Sequence record: MF327006
Direction: 5' to 3' (one strand)
Source of the DNA: Shigella phage Sf20
Length of the DNA: 64,000 bases
Part shown: positions 3,508-49,893 of the stretch, piece by piece
Position numbering within the stretch: the stretch's first letter is position 1
Layout: every line of letters begins with the position of its first letter
Program-made: the position numbers and the translations under genes
Notes under the pieces: model-generated
The model's database searches: none
What the model was told of the DNA's origin: nothing
What the model saw: only the letters and a program-made list of their open reading frames with translations

Positions 3508-3540
3508 CTTGATACTCCTTAGTTGTTTTGGTATGGGAGT

Positions 3541-3569
3541 ATCTTACTACTCCCGTGATATGCTGTCAA
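3541..3569 (-). promoter_or_regulatory. sigma70-type early promoter with stem-loop (PeSL-like)
   Basis: Minus sense TTGACA-N17-TAAGAT; -10 lies in hairpin GGGAGTA...TACTCCC. Confidence 0.55.
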
Positions 3570-3727: not shown

Positions 3728-3765
3728 TTGATTCTCCTTAAAGTGTATTTCGTTTCGATGGGGGT

Positions 3766-3794
3766 ATATTACTACCCCCGTTTCATGCTGTCAA
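3766..3794 (-). promoter_or_regulatory. sigma70-type early promoter with stem-loop (PeSL-like)
   Basis: Minus sense TTGACA-N17-TAATAT; hairpin GGGGGTAGTAATATACCCC. Confidence 0.55.
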
Positions 3795-4013: not shown

Positions 4014-4046
4014 TTTGATTCTCCTTTGTTTCGTTTCGATGGGGGT

Positions 4047-4075
4047 ATATTACTACCCCCGTTATTCAGTGTCAA
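4047..4075 (-). promoter_or_regulatory. sigma70-type early promoter with stem-loop (PeSL-like)
   Basis: Minus sense TTGACA-N17-TAATAT; near-identical copy of the 3766-3794 element. Confidence 0.55.
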
Positions 4076-23466: not shown

Positions 23467-26406
23467 ATGGCAGATTTAAGCAGAATCCAATTTAAACGTA
23501 CTAGCACTAAAGGCCGTCGACCTGATGCTGGTACGATGAATCCGGGGGAATTGGCAATCAACCTTGCGGATCAATATCTTCTTACTAAAAATGATTCCGG
23601 TGCTATTATCAATTTAAGTTGTCCTCCGGTTTATGACCGCGATGTTACAATGGCAGGTAAGGTTAAAGGTAATAATTATATCTTAAGTAAAACCGCCAAC
23701 TATCTGGAAGATCAGACAGCGAGAGACCTTAACTACTTTGGTGCTTTCCGTACCAATGGTCTTGACGGTTTTCTCGAACTCACGCTAAACGTTCCTCATT
23801 CTTCTGGTGTTCAGCATGGTCGAGGATTTACTTTCCAGTATGGACACACAGGAAACCGTGTAGAAACTTATGGTTATAATAAAGAAGGACAAAAAGCATT
23901 TAGCTATAAAATGTATCATGAAGGTGATAAACCTACCCCATCGGAATTGAACGTTTATAGCAAACAAGAAGTTGACCGTATGTTTGTTAAAACCGTTAAA
24001 CTTGCTACAGTTCCTGTTGATATCGTTGACGGTTATTTTAAATTAGCAACTGCAATGATTCCGCAAAACGGTCGTAGTGTATTTTTCCGTATTCATGGTG
24101 GTAACGGATATAACGTTACCGCATACGATCAAGTTGATATTGTAGAAATTGTTATTCGCAGTGGAAATAATCGTCCTAAAGGTGTTAACGTTATTGCATA
24201 CCGACGAAATACAAACAAATCATTTGATGTTTTGGCTGTTAATACTTCTGGTGATAACTATGATATCTACGTGAAATATCAGCGTTACACTGATAACGTT
24301 ATTGTTGAATTTGGTAAAAGTGTTGATGTTGATCTGGTAGTCCATGACGTTCCCGACTTTGTTGTTGATCGTCCTGCTGGCGATAATGTTATTGGCGGTC
24401 GCGCGGTAACTCTTTTCAACACAGAAAATAAACGTGGTGTGTTGAGTTTTGACGATAACACACAAAATAGTTATGATATTGTTCACTTGAGTAATGATAA
24501 AGGTACTGGTCGGAAATATATTCGTAAATTCCGCAGTAACTATAATGAAATGATCTGGCATGAGACGGTTCAAGGTTCTACCTATCGACTCGCCACGGGT
24601 AGTACCGATGCTCAGGAGATTCTAACCGTTGAATCTGTTAGCTCAATTGCTGGAACTCATAAAGGTAATATTATTTCTGGACGTATGCTGTTAAATGGCG
24701 GTAGTAATGTTATTACCTTGCGGCGTCCTGCTGGTCAATCCAACCATATTGCGTTTCAAGATAATCGTACTGGAGATATTACCCGTCAAGGATGGATCGG
24801 TTATGCCAATGCTGATACTAACATTTTTGAATGGTATAGTGATGTAGGTGGCAGTTCTATTCGTCAACATATTGACGGACAGATCGAACTTGCAACCGGT
24901 AACACAAAACGCGTTTATACTAACGCTCAATTCATCTCAATGAATAGCGACGCCTACCGCATGCTCTACGGTAATTATGGTGCATTCTGGCGTAATGACG
25001 GCGTTAAAGTTTATCTTCTTTCTACTGCCGAAAATGATAAATTGGGCGGGTGGAATGCCTATCGTCCATTCATTTATGATTTAACTTCCGGTAACGTTCA
25101 ATTAGGCGGTGATGGTAACGAAGAAGCATTAACGTTAGAACGTGCTTCTCGTGCCGCTCGATTTAGTAATGACGTTTACATTAAGAAAGGGCTTTTGACT
25201 TTCGACGCTGGTCGTGCTGGATCTCGCGATTATATTCGATTTAATCATTGGGGTGATAGCAATAATGCTCGTGATAACGTTTTGTACATAGAAGATAGTC
25301 AAGGCCGACATTTTAGTACAGAACGTGCGATGGGTACTGGTGCTCTTAAAGCATACTTCTTAGGCGATCTTGAAGTCGGTGGTAAGTTTACTTGGGGTAA
25401 AAATACAGCTACATCTAGCTTTAATATCCGTGCATGGGGTGCTGATGCTCGTAAACAGGTATTAGAATGTGCTGATGAAAGCGGTTGGCATTGGTATACC
25501 CAACGACCGGGCGGTCCTGGTACTGATGCAATTGAATTTTCTATTAACGGTACGGTTAAGCCTAAAGCAATTCATACTGGCGGCAATATCACTATCAACG
25601 GTGCTGATATTGAGTTTAAACGCGCTGGCAATAAGCATTTATGGTTTAGAGATCCAAACGGATTAGAATTGGGTTTGATTTATTGTGATGATGCTGGTGT
25701 TATTCGTGTCCGTGGTGAGAAGTCGACCGAAGTGTGGAAATTCTCGGCAAAACAGATTCATTTAGAAACGGGTACTGCTGGTAACGGTGTTGGTTTAATC
25801 CGTGGTGCAGTTGGTGGTGGTGCGTGGACTCAATGGAGAGACCGTGGTACTGGCTTACAGGTTGACTGCCAACAATCAGAAAACTCAGCACACAACATAT
25901 GGCGAGCGACTCATCAAGGTAAGTACCATCTTGCAGCAATGGGTGTTCATGCATCTGGTGGTAGTGTTGCTAATACCGTTGTTCGCTTACATGTTCATGA
26001 CTCAAACTATGATTTCACTGCTGTTGGTGACTTCACCGCAGGTCGTAACGGTTCGTTTAACGATGTGTACATTCGTTCTGATGCTCGCCTTAAAATCAAC
26101 AAGGAAGAGTATAAAGAGAATGCCACCGATAAAGTTAATCGCTTAACTGTATACACCTATGACAAGGTTAAATCTTTAACCGACCGTACTGTCATTGCTC
26201 ATGAAGTTGGCATTATCGCACAGGATCTTGAGAAAGAATTGCCGGAAGCAGTAACAACCTCGAAGATCGGAGACGGTGATACACCAGAAGAGATCTTAAC
26301 AATTTCTAACTCTGCTGTCAACGCTCTTTTAATTAAGGCGTTTCAGGAAATGAGCGAAGAATTGAAAGCCGTTAAAGCTGAACTAGCGGAACTTAAAAAG
26401 AATTAA
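23467..26406 (+). CDS. 37: long tail fiber distal subunit with C-terminal intramolecular chaperone (S74-like) domain
   Basis: N-terminus MADLSRIQFKRTS...GELAINLAD matches gp37; C-terminal SDARLK motif (Ser codon 26077-26079) plus coiled-coil tail. Confidence 0.8.
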   Translation: MADLSRIQFKRTSTKGRRPDAGTMNPGELAINLADQYLLTKNDSGAIINLSCPPVYDRDVTMAGKVKGNNYILSKTANYLEDQTARDLNYFGAFRTNGLDGFLELTLNVPHSSGVQHGRGFTFQYGHTGNRVETYGYNKEGQKAFSYKMYHEGDKPTPSELNVYSKQEVDRMFVKTVKLATVPVDIVDGYFKLATAMIPQNGRSVFFRIHGGNGYNVTAYDQVDIVEIVIRSGNNRPKGVNVIAYRRNTNKSFDVLAVNTSGDNYDIYVKYQRYTDNVIVEFGKSVDVDLVVHDVPDFVVDRPAGDNVIGGRAVTLFNTENKRGVLSFDDNTQNSYDIVHLSNDKGTGRKYIRKFRSNYNEMIWHETVQGSTYRLATGSTDAQEILTVESVSSIAGTHKGNIISGRMLLNGGSNVITLRRPAGQSNHIAFQDNRTGDITRQGWIGYANADTNIFEWYSDVGGSSIRQHIDGQIELATGNTKRVYTNAQFISMNSDAYRMLYGNYGAFWRNDGVKVYLLSTAENDKLGGWNAYRPFIYDLTSGNVQLGGDGNEEALTLERASRAARFSNDVYIKKGLLTFDAGRAGSRDYIRFNHWGDSNNARDNVLYIEDSQGRHFSTERAMGTGALKAYFLGDLEVGGKFTWGKNTATSSFNIRAWGADARKQVLECADESGWHWYTQRPGGPGTDAIEFSINGTVKPKAIHTGGNITINGADIEFKRAGNKHLWFRDPNGLELGLIYCDDAGVIRVRGEKSTEVWKFSAKQIHLETGTAGNGVGLIRGAVGGGAWTQWRDRGTGLQVDCQQSENSAHNIWRATHQGKYHLAAMGVHASGGSVANTVVRLHVHDSNYDFTAVGDFTAGRNGSFNDVYIRSDARLKINKEEYKENATDKVNRLTVYTYDKVKSLTDRTVIAHEVGIIAQDLEKELPEAVTTSKIGDGDTPEEILTISNSAVNALLIKAFQEMSEELKAVKAELAELKKN

Positions 26407-27384: not shown

Positions 27385-27416
27385 GGGGAAGCCTTTCGGC
27401 CTCCCCTTCTTTTTAT
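27385..27416 (+). terminator. intrinsic terminator after the late tail-fiber/holin unit
   Basis: Hairpin GGGGAAGCC-UUUC-GGCCUCCCC (one mismatch) followed by UUCUUUUUAUU. Confidence 0.6.
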
Positions 27417-27661
27417 TGGCGCATAGAAGCCCCTGAATCACATTTTGACGCTGTATGATGAAAACATGTAGCGTACCAGTCATCGGCTTGTTTGTCTTCG
27501 TCAGAAAACGCGTAATTGCGTTGTATGCCGTTTTCTACTTTGACCAGTGCAATAGCTGTTTCTGGAAGATCAATCAATCGGACAAAATCACCGTCTTCCC
27601 ACTCCACACGGGCAATATCATAGCCCATCTCAAAGTATACAATCGCTTGTTCTAATTTCAT
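27413..27661 (-). CDS. DUF2829-like small protein (Tad2-family candidate)
   Basis: 82 aa; N-terminal AIVYFEMGYDIARVEW and C-terminal DEDKQADDWYA resemble the DUF2829 pattern; from memory. Confidence 0.4.
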   Translation of the reverse strand: MKLEQAIVYFEMGYDIARVEWEDGDFVRLIDLPETAIALVKVENGIQRNYAFSDEDKQADDWYATCFHHTASKCDSGASMRQ

Positions 27662-28781: not shown

Positions 28782-29150
28782 TCACTTAACAAAGATTTTC
28801 TTTAATGCTTTCAGGATCGTTGCTTCCGGCGCTTCTTCCGGTGGAGGAAGCAATTCTACCACTTCCTCTTCCAACTCGATATAGTCTACCAGATATTCTA
28901 CATAGAATGCAAGTGCTTCCATGAAATTAGATGCTACATCCGATTCACCACACGCGCCTACATGCATTGTATAAACATCACTGCGATCAAGTTTGTGGAT
29001 GCTTCCCAGATAGTTTCGGTTATACCAGACTTCCCACACTTTCAACTTTCCGGTTTTTGTTGATGTTTTATAATCGGTTTCGTAATGATGTAATTGACGT
29101 TGCAGATCATTGATAATAACACATTTTTCGTAATTGTTTTGAATTTCCAT
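28782..29150 (-). CDS. hypothetical protein
   Basis: ORF track 122 aa. Confidence 0.45.
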   Translation of the reverse strand: MEIQNNYEKCVIINDLQRQLHHYETDYKTSTKTGKLKVWEVWYNRNYLGSIHKLDRSDVYTMHVGACGESDVASNFMEALAFYVEYLVDYIELEEEVVELLPPPEEAPEATILKALKKIFVK

Positions 29151-29160
29151 GATGCAATCC

Positions 29161-29352
29161 TCACTTATCGTTCAGAAGTTCTAAAACTTTCTGTCGTACT
29201 TTGTCAATATTAGTTGATTCAAAAACTGTACGGTATCCCCAGCTTTGACCGTATGAGCGGTTGCAATCTCCATATCCCCATTGTTCAACCTGATAGTATT
29301 CAAGGAATGGGTGCTGCCGAACTATGATACCATCGCGATTAAAAATTACCAT
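29161..29352 (-). CDS. hypothetical protein
   Basis: ORF track 63 aa. Confidence 0.4.
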   Translation of the reverse strand: MVIFNRDGIIVRQHPFLEYYQVEQWGYGDCNRSYGQSWGYRTVFESTNIDKVRQKVLELLNDK

Positions 29353-29375
29353 AATATAATCCTCACGTCAACAAC

Positions 29376-29663
29376 TTATTTTCGGTTGTGGTCACGATAT
29401 GTTTTAAAATATCCCTCGTACCACGGTAAAATATCTGGATTTTTACCACTATACAGACCTTTAACCATCATGTCAATAAGGCCATCTGGTGTTTGATAGT
29501 TTCCCGCTTTTATAAGCTCTCTGATTAAAATCTCTCTGTATATGTCTTTCGGATCTTCGTAATCAACTTGTATTGTGGTTGTGGTCTCATTCAATTTGGT
29601 TTCTGGAGTATCTCGGATCGCATCCCACCAATCTTTTGTGATCTTCATGTTATTGAATTGCAT
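29376..29663 (-). CDS. hypothetical protein
   Basis: ORF track 95 aa. Confidence 0.45.
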   Translation of the reverse strand: MQFNNMKITKDWWDAIRDTPETKLNETTTTIQVDYEDPKDIYREILIRELIKAGNYQTPDGLIDMMVKGLYSGKNPDILPWYEGYFKTYRDHNRK

Positions 29664-29674
29664 AATTTAACCTC

Positions 29675-30433
29675 TTACTTGCAAACGTATTGATCTACAT
29701 CAATTGCGCCACCGAATGTAGGATGACGTTTTTCGAATCGAATAGTTCCGTCGTTTGGTTCGAAAACGGAGTATTCATATAGATCTTTCTTGCCAACATT
29801 CTTATAAAACCCGCCTTTAGTCATAACGGTTTCTTGTACGTTTGCTTTGTGTACGTTGTATTCATCAATGTATACAAAATCAACCATCTTCCCATTTTTA
29901 ATGGTTACTTTAAGATCTCCTGGTTGGTTTCCATATTTTGCATACAGTGGGGCTTCTTTAATTTTGGTGGAAATTCCATCTTTCATACTCCACTCATAAC
30001 GAACGGTGCATTGATAGGTAAAAGTTTCGACCTTCGGTTCTTCTACCACTTTTGCTTCCTGTTTCGGTTGTTCTTCTTCAACCTTCGCAGAAGTCTCTGA
30101 ATAGCTTTCTGACGCGGTTTCTTCTTTAGGTAATACATTCATCAAGTTTTGGATTTGAGCGTTATATACAGCCTCCAGTGGCTGAATCTGCCCGATATTG
30201 ATCATTGTATCACGAACAGTTTTATTCCAGTTGCGTTGCTCTTGTTTAAGAGACGGATCAATCTTAACAGCCTTAACATACACCTCATGAAGTTTAGAGT
30301 CCAGTGCGGAGATAGACTCATTAGCACAAATAAACTTCTCTGATTTGGTAGTAGCTTTAGCGCAATCAAAGGACGCAGCGTTAGCACCGAAAGCAGTAGC
30401 AGAAAGAACGATAGCAGCGATAATGTTTTTCAT
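29675..30433 (-). CDS. secreted protein with DUF1311/LprI-like (lysozyme-inhibitor-like) N-terminal domain
   Basis: Signal peptide MKNIIAAIVLSATAFGANA; CAKATTKSEKFICANESISALDSKLHEVY...KQEQRNWNKTVRD; C-terminal Cys-flanked domain; own promoter. Confidence 0.55.
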   Translation of the reverse strand: MKNIIAAIVLSATAFGANAASFDCAKATTKSEKFICANESISALDSKLHEVYVKAVKIDPSLKQEQRNWNKTVRDTMINIGQIQPLEAVYNAQIQNLMNVLPKEETASESYSETSAKVEEEQPKQEAKVVEEPKVETFTYQCTVRYEWSMKDGISTKIKEAPLYAKYGNQPGDLKVTIKNGKMVDFVYIDEYNVHKANVQETVMTKGGFYKNVGKKDLYEYSVFEPNDGTIRFEKRHPTFGGAIDVDQYVCK

Positions 30434-30468
30434 AATATATTCCTCAGTGTTTTGTCTTGATGGGAGTA

Positions 30469-30497
30469 TCTTACTACTCCCTTAATCCGGTGTCAAC
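30469..30497 (-). promoter_or_regulatory. sigma70-type early promoter with stem-loop (PeSL-like)
   Basis: Minus sense TTGACA-N17-TAAGAT; hairpin GGGAGTAGTAAGATACTCCC. Confidence 0.55.
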
Positions 30498-30507
30498 TAC
30501 TTTTAAA

Positions 30508-30768
30508 TTATTTTCGCCATTCACCGGAAACAATAAAGTTTGTAAAGTGAACGTGGTCCGTGATAACGTCATTAAGTACCATATGCGGATATGCTTTAGT
30601 GTAATCACGTTTACGATCAGTCATCCAACCAACGAAAGTCGGTGCAAAGTACGGCACACCGTCAGATGATGCCATATTAAACCATTTATCAGCCATAAAT
30701 GCAGCCGCCCTAAGATTTTTAATTGAAGTAGTGCGACTAATTTCAAAAACTTTATCGGTAAAATTCAT
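30508..30768 (-). CDS. hypothetical protein
   Basis: ORF track 86 aa. Confidence 0.45.
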   Translation of the reverse strand: MNFTDKVFEISRTTSIKNLRAAAFMADKWFNMASSDGVPYFAPTFVGWMTDRKRDYTKAYPHMVLNDVITDHVHFTNFIVSGEWRK

Positions 30769-30980
30769 TTTAAGCCCCCCGCTCGTGCATTAATACGCAT
30801 TTTCTGCATAGCCATGATCTGGTTTACTGCTTCTTCTTTACGTTCTTGCGTGATAACGTGACCAGATTCCGTAAACTCTCCCGCAACTTCTTCTACGATC
30901 TCGCGAACTTGAGAACGTCCAAAGATGCGGTTTCCTTCGTAGCTCATAAATTCAGTCACTACTTGCTCGATAGATTTCAT
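30765..30980 (-). CDS. hypothetical protein
   Basis: ORF trimmed to ATG 30978-30980 with SD AAGGAG. Confidence 0.45.
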   Translation of the reverse strand: MKSIEQVVTEFMSYEGNRIFGRSQVREIVEEVAGEFTESGHVITQERKEEAVNQIMAMQKMRINARAGGLK

Positions 30981-31012
30981 GTGATTCTCCTTCTTTCGTT
31001 TGGTATGGGAGT

Positions 31013-31041
31013 ATAATACTACTCCCATTTCTTTACGTCAA
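31013..31041 (-). promoter_or_regulatory. sigma70-type early promoter with stem-loop (PeSL-like)
   Basis: Minus sense TTGACG-N17-TATTAT; hairpin GGGAGTAGTATTATACTCCC. Confidence 0.55.
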
Positions 31042-45824: not shown

Positions 45825-46853
45825 TTAAAATTTACAATATTTCATAAACCGCATTTTAGCCATCAGACCTTGTACGGTGTTCTCTTTGATATATTCCATG
45901 ATCTGGTCGCGTGTAGCGCCCTCGTCCTGAATCATGGCGTTAACGTCTTTAGAATGCCACGGGCAACGGTCCCACAATACAATCTTTTCCCCTGCATTGA
46001 TAAACTTTTCCAGTCGGTGCATTGTATCGGCAGACCGTGGTTCCGCATCAAGTACAAACACTCGCTGGTCTGGGAAAGGGATTTCATCTAATCCCAAAGT
46101 ACCGCCAGTAATTGCACACCCGTTATCAATAAACAATGAATCGATCGGACCTTCTAAGAAATACACTGGTTTACTCGGATCGGCGCGTTCAAGACCATAG
46201 ACCTTACTCGCTAACTCGTGAGTTTTAATCGTCATATATTTGGTCTTTCCGTAATCCTTTCTCAATGCTCGCCCCTGAATGGATTCTATCTTGTTCTCGC
46301 GGTTAAAGATAGGAATCACTAAACGTGGTTCAGGTTGTGGATTCTTGAAAGTATCAGCCTTAATGTGATTTGCTACCTTTTGCCATTCTCTCGTGAAATA
46401 CAGAAGATCCCATTTATCGTGAGGGATGCAACGATCACTGACATACTTTATTATAGGATGATTAGCCGGAAGAGTATCTAATCTCTCGCAGAAAGGCAAT
46501 GTTTGCACTTTCTTAATCTCCGGCTTTTCTACCTTTTTCAGTGGCTTGAACGTGGTGTTCTTGTGGTCGCCTTGTTCCTTCCGTCGTTCCATAAGCCATT
46601 CCCTGAATAGGTCCGGCTTATACTGTTTGAGAAATTCACCTAACGGCTGATTGTAGTTACAGTTGAAACAGCCGCAACGCAAACTATCCTTATAGGTATA
46701 GATACGGAATCGCGCTTGAGTATGATTTTTCTTTGAGTCACCGCAGATCGGACAACTACAGACCAGCGTAAATGAGCTAGTATGCAACCGTTTAAAATTT
46801 CGTTCGCCGTATATGGCTTTTTCCGCTATTTCATAATCTGCGTAGTAAATCAT
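45825..46853 (-). CDS. 61: DNA primase
   Basis: 342 aa; zinc ribbon CSCPICGDSKKN...CGCFNC; TOPRIM-like core. Confidence 0.85.
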   Translation of the reverse strand: MIYYADYEIAEKAIYGERNFKRLHTSSFTLVCSCPICGDSKKNHTQARFRIYTYKDSLRCGCFNCNYNQPLGEFLKQYKPDLFREWLMERRKEQGDHKNTTFKPLKKVEKPEIKKVQTLPFCERLDTLPANHPIIKYVSDRCIPHDKWDLLYFTREWQKVANHIKADTFKNPQPEPRLVIPIFNRENKIESIQGRALRKDYGKTKYMTIKTHELASKVYGLERADPSKPVYFLEGPIDSLFIDNGCAITGGTLGLDEIPFPDQRVFVLDAEPRSADTMHRLEKFINAGEKIVLWDRCPWHSKDVNAMIQDEGATRDQIMEYIKENTVQGLMAKMRFMKYCKF

Positions 46854-46862
46854 AATAACCTC

Positions 46863-47066
46863 TTATAGCTCAAATTTCATGAAAGTTCCTACACTTTCAT
46901 TTTCATTCTCTCCGTTTTCATCTAAGCCAAATTTGTAGACACTACCATCTGGCGATGTGTAAGAGAATACACGAAAACGGCCTACCGAATCAAGTTCTGT
47001 AAATTCATATTCTTTTCCGGCTTCAAAAAGTGCATATGTGCTTTTAAGACATTTCATCGTAATCAT
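46863..47066 (-). CDS. hypothetical protein
   Basis: ORF track 67 aa. Confidence 0.45.
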   Translation of the reverse strand: MITMKCLKSTYALFEAGKEYEFTELDSVGRFRVFSYTSPDGSVYKFGLDENGENENESVGTFMKFEL

Positions 47067-47214
47067 TTAAGCGCCACCGACAACAGGATGAGAACTACAC
47101 CAACATACATTGTGATCTCGGATAACTTTTCTGTTTTTGTTTTGTGTCCAGATAATCCGAAAACAACAACACCGACAATAGCGGACAGCAAGCCAACGAT
47201 AAACATGATGATAC

Positions 47215-47390
47215 TAAGCACCGTCTTTCTCCTTTTTGCGTTTTTCTTTACCCGCTACACTAGGTCCACGATTGGTAATAGATCCGCTCGTTTCACCTGC
47301 TGCGATCTTCTCAGGATTGCCGCCAGCATCGCCAGCGGTCATATCTTCTTTGAGTTTATTTTCTTCAACAAACTGTTTAAATCCAATCAT
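47215..47390 (-). CDS. small hypothetical protein (~58 aa, below ORF-track cutoff)
   Basis: Hand-translated MIGFKQFVEENKLKEDMTAGDAGG...; start overlaps upstream stop (ATGA); coordinates approximate. Confidence 0.25.
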
Positions 47391-47764
47391 AGAATAATCT
47401 CTTTCAGTAAGTCAACAATCTGGTCTTTCGTCAGTTTATCCTGATTCTCTACAATCTTGATAACACAAGCATTAACATCTTTTCGAGTCACGCGGGAGAT
47501 CGTTTTAATACGATGAAACGGTTCGTAGAAATATACTGCTTCATTATAGAGCGCAGCAATTTTTCGACGCATTTGATCTTTATCTGACAAGAAAACAAGT
47601 GCTGTTTTATGACCTTCTACACCAGCCACGTTATATAGTTCAGCAACACCCCAGCGACCTTCCGGTTCAATCATTCCGGCGTGTTTACCGTCGATAAAAA
47701 TAAGAATATCTCCGTTGAATGCGGTTTTGAATGCTACATCTTCCGGCGTAATCATATTTTTCAT
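47387..47764 (-). CDS. hypothetical protein
   Basis: ORF track 125 aa. Confidence 0.5.
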   Translation of the reverse strand: MKNMITPEDVAFKTAFNGDILIFIDGKHAGMIEPEGRWGVAELYNVAGVEGHKTALVFLSDKDQMRRKIAALYNEAVYFYEPFHRIKTISRVTRKDVNACVIKIVENQDKLTKDQIVDLLKEIIL

Positions 47765-47794
47765 AATATAGTCTCCTTAGAGTTTCATTATAGA

Positions 47795-48430
47795 TCAAGC
47801 GAATGTAGAAAGCAAACGTTTTGTTTCTTTCAGTTGTCGTTCAAGATCTTTGCGTTTCTCTTTAAGTTGCATTTTAGCATTATTTCGCTGTTTTTCAACA
47901 TCTTTATCAATATGCTTAGTCCAATTATCAATATCAGAATAAGTTGGCATACCCAATTCTAGACCTAATGCGGTTGGATACAGGGTAACAGTCCATAAAC
48001 CGCTAATCTTCTTAAATAGGTCGGGGTGTAGTGTACTATCTACATCTTCCGGTGTCAACTCTTTTTCTTCTTTCAGTGGTGGGATCTCGTCATATGGTTC
48101 CAGTGCATTTACTTTAATATCAGATACCTCATCAAAGAATCCGCGTACATCCGCAGGAAATACACAAGCAATTTCCCAACCGTGATCACGCAGAGAAGTA
48201 ATATTTTTCACTCCCCCACCATGTGTGATGATTGATGTGACATTGCCATCAAGGTCCACCGAATTTACGAGAAATGGCTTATCGTCTGTCAGATCATTAT
48301 AAAACTGTGCTTCGGCTGTAGTCATCTCCAGAAACAGATCTCGGATCGGACGACCATCAGGTGCGTTACCTTCCTTGAGAGTATAAAAGCGACTTACGAT
48401 CCATTTTGGCGGTAAAGCATTAGCGATCAT
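47795..48430 (-). CDS. hypothetical protein
   Basis: ORF track 211 aa. Confidence 0.5.
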   Translation of the reverse strand: MIANALPPKWIVSRFYTLKEGNAPDGRPIRDLFLEMTTAEAQFYNDLTDDKPFLVNSVDLDGNVTSIITHGGGVKNITSLRDHGWEIACVFPADVRGFFDEVSDIKVNALEPYDEIPPLKEEKELTPEDVDSTLHPDLFKKISGLWTVTLYPTALGLELGMPTYSDIDNWTKHIDKDVEKQRNNAKMQLKEKRKDLERQLKETKRLLSTFA

Positions 48431-48480
48431 GTTATATCTCCTATCAAATCATTCACCAGCGCCCCGTAGGGCGCATTTTA

Positions 48481-49893
48481 TTAGAAAGTCATGTTATTTG
48501 CTAGCTCGTCGAGTTTTTCTCGTTTCTCGGCTTGCTGTGCGCTTTGTGGTTTAACTTGTGCATTCTCCTGATCTGCGATCTGGTTTGGAACTTCATACCA
48601 ACGCTGATTGCCTTTTTTCACACCAACGTTAAACCGTGAATAATAGTTCTTATCACCGTAACGAGACTTGATCTGCTTCATGAGTTGAACGCCCATTTTA
48701 GCAAGGTCTTCGGTCTCGATAACACCCAACATAAAATCGGCTGTAGCCGGAAGACCTGCTGATTCAGCGGTATCACTCATGTTAAGGTCTGACGCATCCC
48801 AACCCGCGCGGGTAGTCTGTGCCGCAGTCCAACCAACAACATCCCACTTAACAAAAAATCCTCGCAGTTCTTCCGCAATCGCCTTAACTAGTGTGTAACT
48901 ATTTTCAGAGTATACACGCAAGCGAGACGATGCGCAAATCCCCAGATAGTCAACAATCACAACATCAGGTTTAAACTGTTTCTTGAGTCGCAATTCATTC
49001 ATTAACGCCTCAAAGTGATTGGAGTTCGCGCCACCAGTAGGATACTGCTTGATCATCAATTTTCCAACCGGACGATCTCCGATCTTCTTATTCTTAACAC
49101 GCTTCATACGTGCGGAATATTCCGCAAAAGAAACATTACCATTATCCAATTCATCTAATGTAATGTCAAGCAAGTTTGCGTCGATACGTTTGGCTACGAC
49201 ATGCTCTGCCATCTCCATTGAGATATACAATACATCATAACCACATTCCATATAATCCGCAGCAAGAGAACACAAGCCCAATGATTTGCCAACGTTTACA
49301 CCAGCAAGCAACACATTTAGCGTTTTTCTTTCCGCACCTCCTTTCGTGATTTTATTCAACATCGGCAGCTTAAACGGGATCTTATTCGCCTTAGTCTGAT
49401 ATAGCAAGAATCGTTTTTCGAAGTCATTAAACCAGTCATGACCTACATCAGAATCAAACGTAATGGATAGTGCTTCCTGCATGATCTCAGGAATAGCGCC
49501 CTCACCAGGCAATTTCTTATTCTGTTTCTCTTTTGGTAATTGTGCGTTCGCCTGAATCTCTAGCGCCCGTGACATTGCATTATACATGGCACGGTCACGA
49601 ATAAATTTTTCGGTTTCCTTCATTAACCAATCAAGGTCTTCCGGTGTATTCTCAAGCGAATCAAGAAGAGTTTTAGCCCCTTCATATGTTGTCTGATTGC
49701 CTCTCTCCTTGTCTAAAGCAATCTGTAATGCAGTTGGCGTAGGAATATTGGAATATTCGTCTACGTGCTTTTTAATCAGTTTATAAATCAGTTTTTCTTC
49801 GTCTTCGGTGAAGTAGTCCGCTTTAAGATGAGGCCATACATTCGTAAAGAATGTGCCATTGTAAATCAACTGTGAAAAGATAGTTTTAATCAT
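48481..49893 (-). CDS. 41: replicative DNA helicase (DnaB-like)
   Basis: 470 aa; Walker A GVNVGKS; start overlaps upstream stop (ATGA). Confidence 0.9.
   Translation of the reverse strand: MIKTIFSQLIYNGTFFTNVWPHLKADYFTEDEEKLIYKLIKKHVDEYSNIPTPTALQIALDKERGNQTTYEGAKTLLDSLENTPEDLDWLMKETEKFIRDRAMYNAMSRALEIQANAQLPKEKQNKKLPGEGAIPEIMQEALSITFDSDVGHDWFNDFEKRFLLYQTKANKIPFKLPMLNKITKGGAERKTLNVLLAGVNVGKSLGLCSLAADYMECGYDVLYISMEMAEHVVAKRIDANLLDITLDELDNGNVSFAEYSARMKRVKNKKIGDRPVGKLMIKQYPTGGANSNHFEALMNELRLKKQFKPDVVIVDYLGICASSRLRVYSENSYTLVKAIAEELRGFFVKWDVVGWTAAQTTRAGWDASDLNMSDTAESAGLPATADFMLGVIETEDLAKMGVQLMKQIKSRYGDKNYYSRFNVGVKKGNQRWYEVPNQIADQENAQVKPQSAQQAEKREKLDELANNMTF

Follow-up and report, generated by a model that had tools for sequence, protein, structure and literature searches.

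The LprI protein of Mycobacterium tuberculosis consists of a DUF1311 domain and an MliC domain, and in the account that PMC7933661 gives of it the MliC domain is sufficient for lysozyme resistance (Sethi et al. 2016). Salmonella ScwA, a periplasmic LprI-domain protein, has no lysozyme-resistance role and controls the levels of MltD (PMC7933661). In enterohaemorrhagic Escherichia coli (EHEC), the DUF1311-only protein Etsi4 saves cells from Etse4, an effector that acts in the periplasm (PMC12981562), and homologues of orphan LprI-domain genes of Pantoea lie directly after lysozyme-like type VI secretion system (T6SS) effectors (PMC9796082). Among phage proteins, Spackle (gp61.3) of T4 serves as the functional model, in which exclusion is achieved by inhibiting the incoming tail lysozyme (PMC7677548). 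Here we describe ORF262, a gene in a 64,000-nucleotide stretch of Shigella phage Sf20 (sequence record MF327006; this whole stretch is called the window). It encodes a periplasmic DUF1311 protein to which an orphan barrel, exchanged as a cassette, is fused. We tentatively propose, with a probability of about 0.4, that the protein is a modular periplasmic binder or inhibitor that serves exclusion or immunity.

ORF262 occupies 29675..30433 on the minus strand and encodes 252 amino acids (aa) between its ATG start and a stop codon at 29675-29677. The product is 99% identical to RB49p262 (NP_891833.1), its homologue in phage RB49, which is annotated as 'hypothetical protein'; the surrounding sequence (29000-31000) shares 96-99% identity with RB49-like coliphages (genus Krischvirus). 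An RB49 ORF of the same area already appeared in a listing from 2006 with a weak match to DUF1311 (PMC1524935), and in UniProt the protein is called 'Lysozyme inhibitor LprI-like N-terminal domain-containing protein'. The ratio dN/dS is 0.03-0.3 across both halves of the gene, so ORF262 is truly coding.

Domains and promoter of ORF262

The protein begins with a predicted Sec (signal peptidase I) signal peptide, residues 1-19 (MKNIIAAIVLSATAFGANA; 30377..30433, minus strand). It comprises an n-region MK, the hydrophobic core IIAAIVLSATAF and GANA, with an A-x-A site ahead of A20 (GANA/ASFDC). Cleavage before ASFDC is supported by distant homologues, in which the signal peptides differ (AQA/ASFDC, AFA/ASFDC, VNA/ASFDC) yet the mature start is invariant. 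A search of the N-terminus for a lipobox ([LVI][ASTVI][GAS]C) found none, and the first Cys lies at +5 of the mature protein; the product is thus expected to be soluble and not a lipoprotein.

Residues 20-100 (30134..30376, minus strand) form a DUF1311/LprI-type helical domain with a Cys24-Cys36 pair. Pfam PF07007 (LprI/DUF1311) matches residues 24-76 at 25.1 bits, above the gathering score of 22 (E 2.4e-5), in an alignment that spans only model positions 1-71 of 106, the first two thirds. Relatives in Klebsiella phage Marfa, lambdoid phage ev099 and Aeromonas phage CC2 also exceed the gathering score. AlphaFold, given 20 homologues as input, modelled four helices (pLDDT 73-82), a predicted helical bundle like that of solved DUF1311 proteins. 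The protein has four Cys in all, C24 and C36 in this domain and C142 and C251 at the ends of the barrel; C24 and C36 are the sole Cys pair of the N-domain and are invariant across the phage family. ScwA-type DUF1311 members have four conserved cysteines (PMC7933661). A phmmer search of the protein against PDB sequences found nothing, and in a profile search the closest relatives of the N-module recovered were short DUF1311 proteins, either phage-borne or uncharacterised. Both the cleavable signal peptide and the DUF1311 signature had been called in a sequence-only reading of this DNA, and both hold.

An acidic, E/K/P-rich disordered linker follows (residues 101-136; 30026..30133, minus strand), with 11 Glu and 5 Lys and pLDDT below 50 over residues 104-131. 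Beyond it, residues 137-252 (29678..30025, minus strand) make up a polymorphic C-terminal domain with Cys142 and Cys251 at its ends, the second Cys-flanked domain of the sequence-only reading. Here the model is an 8-stranded up-and-down beta-barrel, with pLDDT 85-90 in the full-length prediction and pLDDT 85 and pTM 0.77 when the domain is modelled by itself. C142 and C251 are invariant in 20 of 20 homologues, and across all C-domain types the only invariant columns are C, DG, D and E.

Since LprI carries an MliC domain after its DUF1311 domain, the obvious candidate for the barrel was MliC, which would give a true LprI architecture. This candidate failed in every sequence comparison made. Four C-domain types had no Pfam match at E <= 10, with E. 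coli MliC scoring 64.9 bits as a control, and aligning the C-domain profile to E. coli MliC with hhalign gave a probability of 0.4%. A profile search of 1.84 billion representative proteins recovered only members of the barrel's own family, apart from a Calx-beta repeat protein (P0022) that we judged spurious; against PDB sequences the profile produced chance matches only. Foldseek found no PDB structure at E <= 1e-3, the best matches being fatty-acid-binding proteins, lipocalins and Cap15 at TM <= 0.54. PliC-type barrels matched no better than other 8-stranded barrels, unrelated barrels (Cap15, OmpW, designed barrels) matched equally well or better, and no MliC, PliC, PhiA or ACP member appeared in the Foldseek top 50.

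The loops that MliC inserts into the lysozyme active site carry the motifs SxSGAxY and YxxxTKG. We found the TKG motif only in the RB49-type sequence (...VMTKGGF...), and it is not invariant in types 1-5 or across all types. Among viral models, besides the RB49 protein itself, one gave a good barrel match, BFVD A0A482GC65, an unnamed 157-aa viral protein (Foldseek E 1.9e-5, TM 0.72, 16% identity); a lipoprotein of Erwinia phage Kwan matched at TM 0.59. The C-domain is therefore best described, from its predicted structure, as an orphan, disulfide-clamped, up-and-down eight-stranded barrel.

The comparison with LprI is accordingly mixed. Both proteins are exported and have two domains, DUF1311 and then a small beta-barrel of similar size. 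LprI, however, is a lipoprotein, while the phage protein has no lipobox, and the phage barrel has no homology to MliC, the domain to which the inhibition by LprI is assigned in the account cited above. The sequence-only reading had drawn its link to lysozyme inhibition from the DUF1311 fold. That link leans on the wrong domain, since MliC was the domain sufficient in LprI according to the same account, and ScwA has no lysozyme-resistance role (PMC7933661). For the same reason the RefSeq and UniProt name 'lysozyme inhibitor LprI family protein', which is based on the DUF1311 domain, overstates what is known.

Upstream of the gene lies a promoter of its own, as the sequence-only reading had it. 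The -35 box TTGACA (30496-30491) and the -10 box TAAGAT (30473-30468) are separated by a 17-nt spacer, and the -10 box is held within a stem-loop, GGGAGTA-gtaaga-TACTCCC, with a 7-bp stem (30481-30462); the whole element spans 30462..30496 on the minus strand. A ribosome-binding site read from the sequence, GAGGA (30441..30445, minus strand), stands 7 nt before the ATG. Promoter-early stem-loop (PeSL) elements are known from RB49 and phi1 (Arbiol et al. 2010, PMC2839356). The ORF262 element likewise joins a consensus sigma-70 promoter to a repeated stem-loop: GGGAGTA-N6-TACTCCC occurs in 5 copies in the window against 0.05 expected. The further PeSL stem-loops lie at 3535-3554, 3760-3779, 4041-4060 and 31007-31026; two have the variant form GGGGGTA...TACCCCC, and the copy at 31007 holds TATAAT inside its loop. 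All Krischvirus contigs examined (Phi1, JSE and metagenomic contigs) keep the motif upstream of the gene. By its sequence, then, the ORF262 promoter is of the published PeSL type, a predicted early sigma-70 promoter.

Exchange of the barrel and spread of the gene

The two halves of ORF262 differ sharply in their conservation. In 20 of 20 database homologues the first ~125 residues are nearly identical, whereas identity in the C-domain drops to 16-40%. In nucleotide sequence, Phi1 and JSE match the window at 92-100% identity on either side of a variable block, within which identity is 30-60%. This block runs from ~30080, in the linker-coding region, to ~29361, just beyond the next gene, ORF261, and so comprises the barrel and ORF261; the collapse of identity falls at ~30080-30026. 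Conservation of the N-half among Krischviruses equals the genome background, and it is the variable block that is the outlier, reshuffled by recombination within genomes that elsewhere share ~95-100% identity. Its base composition shows no clear anomaly (GC 0.37, against 0.41 for the window).

Barrels fall into at least 7 types and at least 2 unrelated classes, both counts being lower bounds. Between JSE-type and RB49-type barrels no homology is detectable past the first strand (hhalign probability 5%). Synonymous divergence (dS) between C-domain types is saturated, and within a type dN/dS is 0.1-0.3, compared with 0.03-0.1 for the N-half. These values rule out rapid positive selection on the C-domain. 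Judged from these sequences, each barrel type is an old module kept under purifying selection, and the types are swapped at the linker.

Directly downstream, ORF261 (29376..29663, minus strand; phrog_15915) starts 12 nt after the ORF262 stop codon and encodes 95 aa without a signal peptide. It is probably co-transcribed with ORF262. Among Krischviruses ORF261 is itself mosaic, with a conserved 5' end (MKFNNMKITKDWWDA) that may act as the 3' homology arm in cassette exchange. ORF261 is not an obligate partner of ORF262, and the types assort independently: type A occurs with both RB49-type and 'AIYAC'-type barrels, and type B with two other types.

Exchange at this locus resembles the PeSL-flanked ORFan cassettes of RB49 and phi1 in that ORF262 stands behind a PeSL element, lies in the hyperplastic region and differs between the two phages. 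It departs from them in the unit exchanged, which here is the 3' half of ORF262 plus ORF261 and not a whole PeSL-to-PeSL cassette, with its 5' junction inside the linker-coding region of ORF262.

The gene is also found outside virulent phages. It is present in 26 of 5426 complete E. coli genomes, annotated as 'lysozyme inhibitor LprI family protein'; over their first 371-408 nt these copies are 94-96% identical to the window, and they diverge beyond. In every case examined, the copy stands last among the genes of a ~35-kb siphovirus-type prophage, which has a serine recombinase and is inserted in hicB, splitting it. An example is the prophage of E. coli H2 (NZ_CP028733.1, 2523685-2558848; L027), in which hicA is intact and adjoins the truncated hicB. 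The prophage copy has as neighbours the gene of a conserved 184-aa protein and what remains of hicB; upstream there is a promoter-like site and downstream a terminator-like hairpin, both by consensus match only. A terminal gene with its own promoter and terminator is the usual layout of phage cargo ('morons'). The upstream prophage gene was considered as a partner and rejected, as it is 90-97% conserved whatever the C-domain type. The lysis region of this prophage includes a metallohydrolase of the D-Ala-D-Ala carboxypeptidase family.

Three barrel types are common to the hicB prophage and Krischvirus contigs, and in one prophage/Krischvirus pair the whole gene has a dS of only ~0.11. Homology between the two begins exactly at the ATG, with unrelated sequence upstream. 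Downstream of the prophage copy, 65 nt of the 5' end of ORF261 remain, at 91% identity (L006, 7772-7837). This leftover stub indicates that a Krischvirus-like genome was the source of the prophage gene, which makes the virulent T4-like phage the donor and the temperate prophage the recipient.

More distant members of the family are the phrog_4675 proteins, Marfa gp026, CC2 gp061 and ev099 gp35. They share a signal peptide, an ASFDC-type DUF1311 N-module (39-43% identity), a linker and a two-Cys C-domain. This C-domain is, however, of another family, with the phrog_14799 match confined to the first ~135 aa. The ev099 gene sits between ea22 and xis, and a P22-like prophage has an additional copy in its early-left region. 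In lambdoid and P22-like prophages, relatives occupy the early-left accessory region.

What the protein may do

On the proposal that we favour, the ORF262 product would be a soluble periplasmic protein made early in infection. Its DUF1311 helical domain would be the shared part, heading a family of phage proteins and followed by the flexible acidic linker, and the exchangeable disulfide-clamped barrel would set which foreign protein is recognised. Such a binder or inhibitor would protect the infected cell, or the lysogen in the case of the prophage copy, from proteins that enter the periplasm from outside. The likeliest targets would be wall-degrading or penetration proteins of superinfecting phages, with superinfection exclusion or immunity as the outcome. 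Periplasmic binding, the kind of target and the exclusion outcome are what we infer here, and we favour this reading because of the export signal, the two disulfide domains on a tether, predicted early transcription in virulent and lambdoid phages, the cargo site in the prophage, and the exchange of old barrel alleles between unrelated phages. Loci that face diverse antagonists typically show such a pattern, with old alleles maintained by selection and passed on as cassettes. The DUF1311-only proteins of EHEC and Pantoea, linked to immunity against wall-directed T6SS effectors, add a precedent, and the failure to find a Spackle gene between genes 41 and 61 of this phage also speaks for the proposal.

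One functional parallel is Spackle, the analogy on which the sequence-only reading had based a role in exclusion. In general character the analogy stands: like Spackle, the ORF262 product is predicted to be an early, Sec-exported, disulfide-containing small periplasmic phage protein. Kinship does not, as the two share no sequence similarity and lie at different loci, and ORF262 has two domains. A tblastn search of the window with the Spackle proteins of AR1 and Marfa gave one spurious match, inside gene 41 (E 0.008), and none at 29675-30433. The interval between genes 41 and 61 (46853-48481, minus strand), where Spackle is encoded in T-even phages, contains no exported ORF of ~97 aa. Homology and synteny with Spackle are therefore rejected, ORF262 lying between gene 52 and t. 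The 41-61 interval holds unrelated small ORFs, among them a 52-aa protein with two hydrophobic segments (47063-47221).

Several observations weigh against an exclusion factor of this kind. Marfa carries both Spackle and a protein of the ORF262 family, so the latter is not simply a Spackle substitute. Co-evolution of the C-domain with the phage's own gp5 lysozyme is rejected. Across 54 Krischvirus records, among them those of phages such as E26 with a Phi1-type barrel, the lysozyme domain of gp5 is >=99% identical, and phages with >=99% identical domains have C-domains that share only ~35% identity; the barrel thus does not co-vary with its own gp5 lysozyme. Receptor masking of the T5 Llp type would tie the C-domain type to the tip of gp37, the long tail fibre's distal subunit, whose C-terminal 300 aa (25504-26403, plus strand) are highly polymorphic among Krischviruses. 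By indirect comparison we found no simple link, as phages with >=98% identical ORF262 have gp37 tips only 61-90% identical to that of the window, the best match reaching 90%. The conservation of the N-domain, being at background level, carries little information about an invariant target. ScwA provides, by analogy, the precedent of a DUF1311 protein that does not inhibit lysozyme and controls MltD instead (PMC7933661). Finally, given a modelled C-domain that has no specific relative in structure or sequence, ligand binding is equally compatible with the fold. Taken together with the comparisons above, the earlier functional interpretation is partly supported.

A broader form of the proposal, which we regard as doubtful, is a shared 'plug-in' periplasmic defence. 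Here the DUF1311 module would present interchangeable binders, each directed at a different protein injected by competitor phages or bacteria, and the binders would be traded in co-infected cells. If true, this would be a polymorphic exclusion or immunity system with a logic like the immunity side of polymorphic toxins, carried by T4-like virulent, lambdoid and hicB-integrating temperate phages.

The same features can be read as protection of the host. DUF1311, and possibly the barrel, would then neutralise peptidoglycan-degrading T6SS effectors, colicin-type toxins or host lysozymes. T6SS immunity is the only role reported from experiment or genomic context for DUF1311-only proteins, the prophage cargo site would suit lysogenic conversion, and the polymorphism is like that of orphan immunity genes. 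The immunity protein of EHEC and the predicted ones of Pantoea also share with ORF262 a signal peptide, a DUF1311 domain and a periplasmic location, and offer a precedent for neutralising wall-directed enzymes, a role that by analogy is plausible for the N-domain. ORF262 differs from them in its extra polymorphic barrel, its place on a phage and its early promoter. No effector gene adjoins ORF262 or its relatives in any phage or prophage context examined, T6SS immunity would be of little use to a virulent phage with a short latent period, and the closest relatives of the N-module recovered are phage-borne or uncharacterised. We consider host protection unlikely.

We also think it unlikely that the protein modulates host wall enzymes in the way that ScwA raises MltD, so that the sacculus is stabilised or remodelled, possibly affecting lysis timing or lysis from without. 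Support for such a role comes from ScwA, which controls the lytic transglycosylase MltD and causes lysis upon overproduction (PMC7933661), and from the position of ORF262, 2.3 kb from holin gene t. However, ScwA has a different architecture with its LprI domain at the C-terminus, conserved host targets would leave the many old C-domain versions unexplained, and the gene is unlinked to lysis genes in other phages. The lysis timing put forward in the sequence-only reading has just the 2.3-kb distance from gene t in its favour.

Although the best structural matches of the barrel include fatty-acid-binding proteins and lipocalins, we find it quite improbable that the barrel is a calycin-like binder of a periplasmic small molecule such as a lipid, siderophore or signal. 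All these matches are weak, as given above, and a single ligand would not need many versions, some of them mutually undetectable by hhalign; nor are conserved pocket residues evident among the few invariant positions. A polymorphic secreted toxin with ORF261 as its cognate immunity protein, suggested by a variable block that spans the C-domain and ORF261 as in CdiA-CT/CdiI or Rhs modules, is largely refuted and very improbable, as barrel types and ORF261 types combine without one-to-one pairing, the gene in the prophage copies is followed by just the ORF261 stub, ORF261 has no signal peptide while the barrel would be periplasmic, and the upstream prophage gene does not vary with the barrel either.

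Neighbouring genes and significance

ORF262 is set in a run of small leftward genes with the topoisomerase gene 52 on one side and holin gene t on the other, and its neighbours in the window are small phage ORFans. NCBIfam and PADLOC searches gave no match. The gene directly upstream (30508-30768, minus strand; 86 aa, phrog_19692) corresponds to ORF263.1 of Phi1 and is absent in RB49; the RB49 match covers 87% of the 2-kb query, and this gene is a further insertion/deletion difference of the hyperplastic region. At 28782-29150 (minus strand) lies a 122-aa ORF for whose homologues precomputed annotations list PF26821 (Phage_T4_Y16F); it had no match in the Pfam copy searched, and in the RB49 annotation it is likened to a 12.8-kDa protein from the asiA-motA region of T4. 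Beside holin gene t, an 82-aa ORF (27413-27661, minus strand), the homologue of RB49p255, matches Pfam PF11195, 'Thoeris anti-defense 2-like' (27.9 bits against a gathering score of 25, E 3.4e-6). On the strength of this match, it is a candidate anti-Thoeris sponge in Krischvirus.

In T4-like phages, to our knowledge, a molecular understanding of superinfection exclusion exists only for the T-even proteins Spackle and Imm, and we know of no way by which RB49-like phages exclude competitors. The 65-nt stub of ORF261 documents directional gene flow from a virulent T4-like phage to a temperate prophage. For the RB49-like phages, the ORF262 locus provides a concrete, domain-swappable candidate for exclusion or immunity, and its natural barrel versions could be used directly as specificity variants.

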